Assembly (NCBI GenBank): GCA_019057475.1
Contig: DXJO01000006.1
Span: forward strand, 32,001 to 96,000
Source of the DNA: Candidatus Thorarchaeota archaeon
GTDB taxonomy: Archaea; Asgardarchaeota; Thorarchaeia; Thorarchaeales; Thorarchaeaceae
Length of the DNA: 64,000 bases
Direction: 5' to 3'
In this document: positions 25,229 through 48,357 of the stretch, piece by piece
How the letters are laid out: every line of letters starts with the position of its first letter
Numbering within the stretch: the first letter of the stretch is position 1
The notes under the pieces: generated by a model
The model's database searches: none
What the model saw: only the letters and a program-made list of their open reading frames with translations
What the model was told of the DNA's origin: nothing
Translations under genes and position numbers: made by a program

Positions 25229-25381
25229 ATGACAGAAGAAATACCTGAAGGCGTACTGAACATCATCGAGATGGTTGTTCGGTGCTACGACTGCTGACTA
25301 TCCTGCGGCGCTCATCTCGTCATTATCGACGAAGAGGGCCGCGAACTAGTCAGGAAGGAGCTTCAGACCGGCGGCGGATGA
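25229..25381 (+). CDS. vhuU: Selenocysteine-containing hydrogenase peptide VhuU (TGA=Sec at 25295-25297)
   Basis: MTEEIPEGVLNIIEMVVRCYDC-TGA-LSCGAHLVIIDEEGRELVRKELQTGGG*; supplies the L2 motif missing from vhuA; near-identical second copy. Confidence 0.9.
25305..25342 (+). promoter_or_regulatory. Coding-region stem-loop 7 nt 3' of the Sec UGA (SRE-like)
   Basis: GCGGC/GCCGC, CTC/GAG, TCGTC/GACGA stems with 6-nt loop; stems identical in copy 2. Confidence 0.6.
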
Positions 25382-25419
25382 AGACCCAGAAAAAAGATTG
25401 AAAACTGAGTCTGACCTGC
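25374..25419 (+). ncRNA. Eukaryote-like SECIS element of vhuU copy 1
   Basis: GCGG-ATGA-AGACCCAG-(A-rich loop)-CTGAGTCT-GA-C-CTGC; ATGA core includes the vhuU stop codon. Confidence 0.7.
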
Positions 25420-25727
25420 TCCAGCAGGGGCGGAGTCGGTCTGGCTCCTTCAAACACCAGTCTTGTATGCTCGAACTCCTACACTCCAAAGAAGACAATG
25501 AATGATTTCGGACATTGAATTGTTATTTCGAATCCAGATTCAAAATTCAGAAACATCTTCCTGATTGTCTGTAATCATGCATGAAATCATTGATTGCGTT
25601 TCGTTTCAAATGATGAATCTCGTTTCCGTGACCGAAACCTAACTCAATAGTATTATAATCTCGTTGAGAGGACTCCTCGCTGGCCTCTGGCATGATTGCT
25701 CGCAGAACGGAACGGTGAATTGAGCCA

Positions 25728-34565: not shown

Positions 34566-34718
34566 ATGACAGACGAAATACCTGAAGGAGTACTGAACAT
34601 CATCGAAATGGTTGTTCGGTGCTACGACTGCTGACTATCCTGCGGCGCTCATCTCGTCATTGTCGACGAAGAGGGCCGCGAGATAGTTAGGAAGGAGCTC
34701 GTGACTGGCGGCGGATGA
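34566..34718 (+). CDS. vhuU: Selenocysteine-containing VhuU, copy 2 (TGA=Sec at 34632-34634)
   Basis: MTDEIPEGVLNIIEMVVRCYDC-TGA-LSCGAHLVIVDEEGREIVRKELVTGGG*; 4 aa differences from copy 1, frame conserved past the TGA. Confidence 0.9.
34642..34679 (+). promoter_or_regulatory. SRE-like stem-loop 3' of the Sec UGA, copy 2
   Basis: Same stems as 25305-25342; the only change is in the loop (ATTATC to ATTGTC). Confidence 0.6.
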
Positions 34719-34756
34719 AGGCTCGGTCGAAAACTAACGGACCGGGTTGGACAGCC
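34707..34756 (+). ncRNA. Eukaryote-like SECIS element of vhuU copy 2
   Basis: ATGA-A-GGCTCGGTC-GAAAACTAACG-GACCGGGTT-G-GA-C; 9-bp helix with G-U pairs, AAAA loop; ATGA includes the stop codon. Confidence 0.75.
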
Positions 34757-34762
34757 TCGCAA

Positions 34763-34800
34763 GGGCGCGCTAGTCGCGCTCCTTCTATCCCTTTATTTCT
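34763..34800 (+). terminator. GC hairpin plus pyrimidine tract ending hdr/vhu cluster 2
   Basis: GGCGCG-CTAGT-CGCGCT then CCTTCTATCCCTTTATTTCT. Confidence 0.45.
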
Positions 34801-47544: not shown

Positions 47545-48357
47545 ATGGATATTGGAGCATCTTTCTATGCGGGTTGTGAGATACCATTCGATCAGTTCCT
47601 TAGCATGTGTAGTAACCTAGGTATGAGCTATGTTGAGATTCAGACTGAACATCCCTACACACCTTCCGAGATGAACAGGAAACATGTCAATGAAGTCAGG
47701 GAACTTGCGAACACCTGCGGTCTCAACATCATCCTTCATGGCTCCCTGTTCGACACAAATCTGTCTAGCCTCAAGGAATGCATTAGAAGGGCATCAGTGA
47801 AGTTCATGCAGGAATGTGTTGAGCTAGCTAGCAAGTTAGGTGCCAATTTGCTAGTTGTACACGCCGGCTCATTTCCCGGAGACTTTCCAAATAATCTGAT
47901 GAATAAAGCCCGCGATCAACTCCATAGCAGTTTCTCTGAATTAACCAAGGTCGCTATGAACTCTGGAGTGACAATCGGCGTAGAAAATAAGCAAAAATCT
48001 GAAGATCGAGAACTGGTTCTGTATCCAGATGAACACCTTGAGGTTGTTGAGGCATTTCGTGATCAAGGGGCTAGGGCAGTTCTAGACATCGGGCATGCTC
48101 ACACTGCTAATAGCGACCTGGCGAACTATACACACCTACTTAATGACCTGAATATCGAGTTGCACCTTCATGATAACAACGGGATTTCTGACGACCATCT
48201 CCTTCTTGGTGGAGGAAGCATTGACTTCGAAAGCTTCTTTGAGGTAGTCAGAAGCATTGGTTTTACTGGCCCGGCGATTCTTGAGTTAAAGAATAGACCT
48301 GACCTAGAGTCCAGTATGGGATTCCTCCGTAAGAATGGTATCCCATGTACGCGATGA
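47545..48357 (+). CDS. Sugar-phosphate isomerase/epimerase (xylose-isomerase-like TIM barrel)
   Basis: VVHAG, GVEN, LDIGHA, LHLHDNNG..DDHL..GGGSIDF, ILE. Confidence 0.85.
   Translation: MDIGASFYAGCEIPFDQFLSMCSNLGMSYVEIQTEHPYTPSEMNRKHVNEVRELANTCGLNIILHGSLFDTNLSSLKECIRRASVKFMQECVELASKLGANLLVVHAGSFPGDFPNNLMNKARDQLHSSFSELTKVAMNSGVTIGVENKQKSEDRELVLYPDEHLEVVEAFRDQGARAVLDIGHAHTANSDLANYTHLLNDLNIELHLHDNNGISDDHLLLGGGSIDFESFFEVVRSIGFTGPAILELKNRPDLESSMGFLRKNGIPCTR

Follow-up and report, generated by a model that had tools for sequence, protein, structure and literature searches.

What does the hairpin that follows the selenocysteine (Sec) codon of vhuU do in Thorarchaeia? The question is raised by a 64,000-nt stretch of contig DXJO01000006.1 from a Candidatus Thorarchaeota archaeon (hereafter the window), which holds two copies of this short gene (Table 1). 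Copy 1 is a 50-codon frame with an in-frame Sec TGA at codon 23, and the encoded VhuU peptide reads RCYDC-U-LSCGAH, followed by a 21-residue tail. Of 400 genomes from the phylum, 291 proved in a protein search to contain vhuU-like frames, nearly all of them with one TGA. All sequences analysed come from metagenome-assembled genomes, and we infer the expression of vhuU and the insertion of Sec at its UGA from conservation.

Table 1. Features of the two vhuU copies and of their RNA elements, in window coordinates.
Feature	Position	Strand	Remarks
vhuU, copy 1	25229..25381	+	Stop TGA lies within the AUGA of the SECIS core
Sec UGA, copy 1	25295..25297	+	
H1 lower stem, 5' strand, copy 1	25294..25300	+	CUGACUA, UGA included; pairs with 25347-25353
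H1 main stem-loop, copy 1	25304..25343	+	Encodes C-G-A-H-L-V-I-I-D-E-E-G-R; conserved with covariation
H1 lower stem, 3' strand, copy 1	25347..25353	+	UAGUCAG
P1 5' strand, copy 1	25354..25361	+	GAAGGAGC, codons R-K-E-L; directly after H1; pairs with 25444-25451
AUGA core of the 3' SECIS, copy 1	25378..25381	+	Overlaps the stop codon; lokiSECIS type
P1 3' strand, copy 1	25444..25451	+	GCUCCUUC; closes the SECIS domain
vhuU, copy 2	34566..34718	+	
Full H1, copy 2	34631..34690	+	9-bp lower stem including the UGA; main stem 34641-34680; apical loop AUUGUC
Sec UGA, copy 2	34632..34634	+	
P1 5' strand, copy 2	34691..34698	+	Contiguous with H1, no linker
AUGA core of the SECIS, copy 2	34715..34718	+	Overlaps the stop codon
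P1 3' strand, copy 2	34778..34785	+	GCUCCUUC

In copy 1, the Sec TGA is followed by 7 nt (CTATCCT) and then by a stem-loop at 25305-25342, made of 5+3+5 bp with the loop ATTATC. Its minimum free energy (MFE) of -21.7 kcal/mol corresponds to a z of -5.2 against 200 dinucleotide shuffles, none of which folded as well, and its counterpart in copy 2 (34642-34679) is identical in fold and energy. The coordinates and anatomy that a first-pass annotation of this DNA had given for the hairpin proved exact, the predicted fold matching them at that same energy. The structure, which we call H1, exceeds this first drawing by an extra closing U-G pair (25304/25343) and by a lower stem, in which CUAUC right after the UGA pairs with GAUAG in the Glu-Ile codons. 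In copy 2 the lower stem is formed by CUGACUAUC (34631-34639) and GAUAGUUAG (34682-34690). Since the pairing spans the UGA in both window copies, the UGA is itself paired, and this is the case in about three quarters of the Thorarchaeia family sequences. With the lower stem included, H1 begins at the UGA and reaches about UGA+56 in both copies; for copy 2, its 52-nt core folds at -28.8 kcal/mol (z -5.1). The main stem starts 6-7 nt 3' of the UGA. The internal loop is AUC/A in the window, and DDE-type orthologues have a continuous helix there. We also observed that the lower stem is weaker in copy 1 than in copy 2.

Of the 153 nt of the gene, 11 differ between the copies, and the sole difference inside the 38-nt hairpin lies in the loop (25325, Ile>Val). 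This had been read as a sign that the stem is constrained. The observation itself stands, but the presence of at most one of 11 differences within 38 nt is not significant (hypergeometric P=0.19), so that the two-copy comparison proves nothing. It had also been assumed that protein constraint is low in the tail, and this was wrong: the tail VDEEGREIVRKELVTGGG is among the best-conserved parts of the protein in the Thorarchaeia family. The RNA signal therefore has to be separated from a real protein signal, which was done by recoding and covariation controls.

For the recoding control, the 54 nt after the UGA were rewritten with synonymous codons drawn from the genome's own usage (1241 long ORFs). 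Both copies folded better than these codon-shuffled controls, copy 1 at -23.7 kcal/mol against -12.0+/-3.9 (z -3.0, 5 of 1000 recodings as good) and copy 2 at -29.4 against -11.7+/-3.6 (z -4.9, 0 of 1000). Among 400 random in-frame 54-nt segments of long ORFs, taken as a genomic null, z had a mean of -0.05 and a standard deviation of 1.09; 1.3% of the segments reached z -3 and none folded below -23.0.

The synonymous-site conservation and covariation expected of an RNA signal were found within Thorarchaeia, across about 60 vhuU orthologues. The family sample comprised 59 distinct sequences of the region from 16 genera, all Thorarchaeia, and the hairpin was kept in all 59, with a median MFE of -27.7 kcal/mol (range -38.8 to -20.0). 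Against synonymous recodings the median z was -4.0, with all sequences at -2 or lower and 80% at -3 or lower. In a gap-free alignment of 46 of the 59 sequences, 91.6% of the pair cells were paired, as opposed to 28-55% when the 3' partners were slid by 1-3 columns, and the covariation score was 0.113 versus 0.072 in shuffles, with 0 of 500 shuffles scoring as high. Three basal-stem pairs had changed on both sides: 18-53 from C-G to U-A (Cys UGC>UGU with Arg>His), 20-51 from G-Y (G-C or G-U) to C-G, and 21-50 from C-G to U-G to U-A. At 20-51, 10 of the 11 Gly>Ala changes on the left arm were accompanied by a synonymous GGC>GGG on the right. According to a tree built from the flanking sequence, pairs 18-53 and 20-51 each changed about 3-5 times and pair 21-50 about twice; the tree contrasts (paired-lineage sign tests) were all concordant and too few for significance at any single pair.

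Codon choice followed the same pattern. Leu+1 after the Sec codon is CUA in 42 of 46 family members and Arg+15 is CGC in 43 of 43, codons that make up 13% of Leu and 14% of Arg codons genome-wide, respectively. Other paired third positions were also frozen (Ala+5 GCU 44/46, Val+8 GUC 40/42, Glu+13 GAG 43/44), and those of two loop codons and of the internal-loop Leu were nearly free. In ten variants that carry a 4-codon insertion, different residues close the stem (GUGCGG/CUGCAC), at -28 to -39 kcal/mol over 66 nt. Selection has kept H1 as an RNA structure; it does not simply follow from the protein sequence. As a separate observation on these variants (L062-L064, L072 and L117-L122), the insertion brings four acidic residues into the tail (EDDDGE.HE), and the RNA stem is rebuilt around it.

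Sec-type genes of other Asgard lineages were evaluated with lineage-specific codon usage where codons sufficed, and conservation of the stem in these more distant orthologues held for part of them. Sigynarchaeia (family f23) have the same architecture in 2 of 3 sequences with a different tail peptide (z -2.5 and -3.0), through the stems UAUC/GAUA (lower) and CUGCGC/GCGCGG (main). A hairpin is present in 4 of 4 Jordarchaeia (f16), in another register (z -2.6 to -4.1), in 3 of 3 members of family f30 (z about -3) and in 2 of 4 members of f15, and the hairpins of Jordarchaeia, f30 and part of f15 are centred at the same place as H1. Families f21, f17 and f18/19 gave a weak stem signal that was not significant in f17 and f18/19, and no hairpin was detected in f4 or in the large AT-rich Loki-like family f22 (median z -0.6 and -0.7, respectively). 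The Loki-like negative agrees with a 2016 RNAz scan of Loki-type coding sequences, which found nothing besides the SECIS (PMC4989117).

To place H1 in its message, 36 family sequences were folded together with RNAalifold from the UGA to 90 nt past the stop. Five elements were recovered: H1, a helix P1, a helix P2, an AUGA-headed SECIS stem with an A-rich loop and a GNRA hairpin. P2 is the published lower SECIS stem, and the 3' domain, in which many pairs have changed on both sides, is the known lokiSECIS/eSECIS-like element (PMC4989117, PMC11227280). P1 pairs AGGAAGGAG (codons +19 to +21, Arg-Lys-Glu) with CUCCUUCC, which lies in the 3' region some 65 nt beyond the stop codon, so that the entire SECIS falls within the helix. 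P1 shows covariation among orthologues (AAGGAAC/GUUCCUU or GAGAGCU/AGCUCUC, for instance) and accounts for the frozen codons at the end of the gene (AAG 43/43, GUG 41/41, GGC 37/37, GGA 40/40). We found no description of this outer helix in the published SECIS accounts (PMC4989117, PMC11227280). When the two copies are folded as single sequences, P1 follows H1 without a gap, which puts the UGA at the foot of a continuous H1/P1 stack. Drawn as wider intervals, the P1 pairing joins 25352-25361 with 25444-25451 and 34689-34698 with 34778-34785.

Several observations on the 3' domain were made along the way. A conserved GNRA-loop hairpin, CCYCGCAAGGG, lies about 35-50 nt past the stop (L004-L072; 34754-34765 in the window), between the SECIS 3' GA and the 3' strand of the lower stem, so that the vhuU SECIS of Thorarchaeia takes the form of a three-way junction. 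In copy 1 the SECIS domain (25381-25451) is unlike that of copy 2 (34718-34785) and of all other family members (L004-L072): its AUGA is followed by an additional A-rich segment and by a hairpin of just 5 bp (AGAUU/AGUCU, loop GAAAACUG), and the loop of its second hairpin is AGCA, not GCAA, with P1 (GCUCCUUC) retained. Copy 1 may be a diverging or less efficient copy. Rfam gave no match at the gathering score in the window. Two C/D-box sRNA matches at chance level (sR52, E 1.6; sR41, E 4.8) coincide with the SECIS core, GGAUGA, at 25371-25409, owing to the kink-turn-like sequence of that core. The GAA/A asymmetric internal loop flanked by G-C pairs of the methanogen SECIS is not conserved in H1, nor is any kink-turn motif, and it has neither the AUGA...GA/AA core nor the A-rich loop of an Asgard eSECIS-like element, both of which are in the separate 3' element.

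Is H1 then tied to Sec? The Sec genes found in this genome are the two vhuU copies and selD; none of its FlpD/MvhD and AhpC-type genes carries a TGA, and a crude SECIS pattern scan together with a CxxU scan of the genome gave no convincing further selenoprotein gene. Downstream of the selD UGA no structure was seen in this genome (z about +0.5 to +1.0), and no hairpin in 20 other Thorarchaeia genomes (z -2.2 to +1.4, median about -0.4). The lack of a hairpin in selD of the same genomes indicates that H1 is dispensable for Sec insertion as such.

Genes with Cys in place of Sec gave a mixed answer. A contig scan with the VhuU alignment, the Sec position being read as Cys, returned four Cys-type genes only and no methanogen vhuU. 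Among the Thor-like Cys-type proteins P0003, P0004 and P0005, the analysis covered the DNA of P0003, which came from a metagenome pattern scan whose 16 hits were mostly due to chance; a phylum search with P0003 returned Sec-type genes only in the 400 genomes sampled. In 86 Thorarchaeia genomes a single Cys-type vhuU was found, the paralogue L157 of genome G319, which has no hairpin (-7.8 kcal/mol, z +1.4) and no SECIS; the two Sec copies of that genome fold at -27.5 kcal/mol (z -5.2). Likewise, a Jordarchaeia Cys paralogue (L107) has no excess structure (z -0.2), and its Sec partner in the same genome has a z of -3.2, or -4.1 with lineage codon usage. Excess structure was also absent from the Cys-type genes L053 (z +1.6), L108 (+0.3) and L143 (-0.2). 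It was present, however, in L151, a Thor-like metagenomic gene that has lost its SECIS (-21.9 kcal/mol, z -2.4), and in two Sigyn-like Cys groups (L084, z -2.0; L142/L152, z -2.6/-2.9). With three Cys lineages keeping excess structure, the link to Sec is supported but not clean.

Some peculiarities of the genes surveyed may be recorded here. L143 (SDBS01004760.1) has TGT at the Sec position together with an intact-looking AUGA SECIS and its GCAA hairpin, and looks like a recent Sec-to-Cys conversion. In seven Cys-type VhuU sequences (L107, L157, P0007, P0017, P0021, P0024 and P0049) Phe replaces the His of the protease cleavage site (CSAF); these paralogues may be unprocessed, or may no longer be hydrogenase ligand peptides. 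Nine family genomes (L159-L167) have a second or alternative selD without TGA, in frames of 532-782 residues (a fusion protein), which scores about 400 bits versus about 210 for the Sec-type selD. Finally, a frame at window position 48355 (G000:C29:80354) has the sequence ...CTR-TGA-RMLGLL..., its TGA preceded by 269 open codons and followed by 24; a modest hairpin lies downstream (z -2.1) and no SECIS was seen there, and this TGA is probably an ordinary stop.

Taken together, we favor with moderate confidence a model where H1 is a putative cis-acting mRNA helper for reading the vhuU UGA as Sec, acting with the eukaryote-like SECIS 80 nt downstream, and where it would be specific to this gene and not a general requirement of the Sec system. 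Its absence from selD and from a Cys-type paralogue, the 6-7 nt spacing, which is typical of recoding stimulators, and the presence of the 3' SECIS are consistent with a gene-specific helper resembling the Sec redefinition elements (SREs) that lie beside some eukaryotic Sec codons and stimulate recoding (PMC8704476, PMC4561486).

The alternative that survives best is that H1 serves the vhuU message or protein apart from recoding, by protecting a short last cistron from nucleases, by insulating the SECIS fold against the coding sequence or by pacing translation of the tail. The lack of a hairpin in selD would fit such a role, as would the excess structure of the three Cys lineages and the fact that the hairpin always overlaps the cleavage-site His and the tail that the maturation protease removes. 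On the other hand, the five Cys forms without a hairpin speak against it, and the structure of L151, which has a C-C mismatch in the H1 register and is 81-85% identical to Sec forms, is what is expected of a decaying relic. A role unrelated to Sec also leaves the fixed spacing and the pairing of the UGA unexplained. As Cys-type genes are few and non-uniform, such a role retains some plausibility, although we consider it rather unlikely.

H1 could also be a bacterial-type SECIS (bSECIS), or a relic of one, that is read directly by the Sec elongation factor, with the 3' element being secondary. Its position would suit this, as it is, like a bSECIS, a coding-sequence stem-loop that starts from the UGA and has its apical loop 24 nt downstream. 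Bacterial [NiFeSe] hydrogenases, moreover, carry Sec at the same motif. However, no part of the hairpin varies more freely than the apical loop, which has no conserved G or U, and the SelB C-terminal winged helix (PF09107) was not found in this 96%-complete genome, the E. coli control being positive. These two facts make a direct reading of H1 unlikely. The strong conservation of the 3' SECIS domain, with covariation, points the same way, and the published archaeal SelB did not bind its SECIS (PMC11881835). We therefore regard a bSECIS as improbable. The least probable account, in which the pairing is a by-product of a conserved peptide (CGAH...DEEGR) and codon bias, draws on the high conservation of the tail and on the 4 of 13 stem pairs that are fixed by amino acids (C-G 25313/25334, U-A 25317/25332, G-Y 25319/25330 and U-A 25320/25329), but it is contradicted by the recoding and covariation controls and was rejected, as synonymous recoding of this peptide costs 10-17 kcal/mol of folding energy, rare codons are invariant at paired sites, the amino-acid change on one arm is matched by a synonymous change on the other, and the insertion variants and Sigynarchaeia form the stem from other residues.

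If H1 is indeed a recoding helper, its geometry suggests how it might work. When the UGA enters the A site, the ribosome would cover roughly the next 10 nt and the lower stem would already be melted, so that the G+C-rich main stem would abut the mRNA entrance, a placement shared with SREs, with readthrough and frameshift stimulators and with the bacterial SECIS. The ribosome could thereby be slowed and the release factor disfavored relative to the Sec-tRNA, as with eukaryotic SREs and viral readthrough hairpins. About 40 nt would also be folded away, which could shorten the distance between the ribosome and the SECIS domain, with its Sec-tRNA delivery complex, from about 55 to about 10 nt. These pause and compaction effects are not mutually exclusive. 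In archaea no SECIS-binding protein is known, and the Loki SECIS alone was inactive in Methanococcus maripaludis (PMC11881835).

A more speculative proposal, which we put forward only tentatively, is that Thorarchaeia vhuU preserves a two-signal stage of Sec decoding, in which a UGA-adjacent hairpin of the bacterial or SRE kind cooperates with a eukaryote-like kink-turn SECIS and is stacked onto it, and that H1 might be the archaeal counterpart, possibly the ancestor, of eukaryotic SREs. In the view put forward by Mariotti et al. (2015), SREs go back to bSECIS elements that were 'downgraded' to a helper role (PMC4561486). An Asgard example, if homologous, would be the missing intermediate between the two, and a helper role for H1 would bear on the descent of SREs from UGA-adjacent bacterial-type elements (PMC4561486). 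It would also mean that 3' regions by themselves do not suffice for reading Asgard recoding signals, which matters for selenoprotein prediction and for heterologous hydrogenase expression, and it would offer a mutable target for testing the competition of ribosome, release factor and SECIS complex. The presence of the hairpin in vhuU versus its absence in selD of the same genomes constitutes a natural experiment.

In our full-text literature searches neither an archaeal SRE nor any account of a hairpin in the vhuU coding region came up, and SRE-type elements have so far been described in eukaryotes only. Among known systems, the eukaryotic SRE of SELENON/SEPN1 (Howard et al. 2005, 2007; PMC8704476) resembles H1 in being a conserved coding-sequence stem-loop a few nucleotides 3' of a Sec UGA, in occurring in only a subset of selenoprotein genes and in sharing its mRNA with a kink-turn type SECIS further 3'. 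H1 differs in being archaeal, the likeness being one of structure and position, in including the UGA in its lower stem and in being contiguous with a SECIS domain about 80 nt from the UGA. Readthrough and frameshift hairpins and pseudoknots (viral and cellular, including the insect HRE; PMC4561486) have a similarly stable structure behind a 5-9 nt spacer; they act, however, without the Sec machinery, whereas vhuU has a SECIS and its expected product contains Sec, not a near-cognate amino acid. Like H1, a bSECIS is a coding-sequence hairpin starting from the UGA that would stand at the mRNA entrance during UGA decoding, but H1 lacks a conserved apical-loop G or U, no SelB winged helix was found in its 96%-complete genome and its message has a separate conserved 3' SECIS. 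The lokiSECIS (Mariotti 2016, PMC4989117; Huang 2024, PMC11227280), finally, belongs to the same gene and message, and H1 stacks on its closing helix; H1 is wholly in the coding region, whereas the lokiSECIS studies modelled 3' regions.
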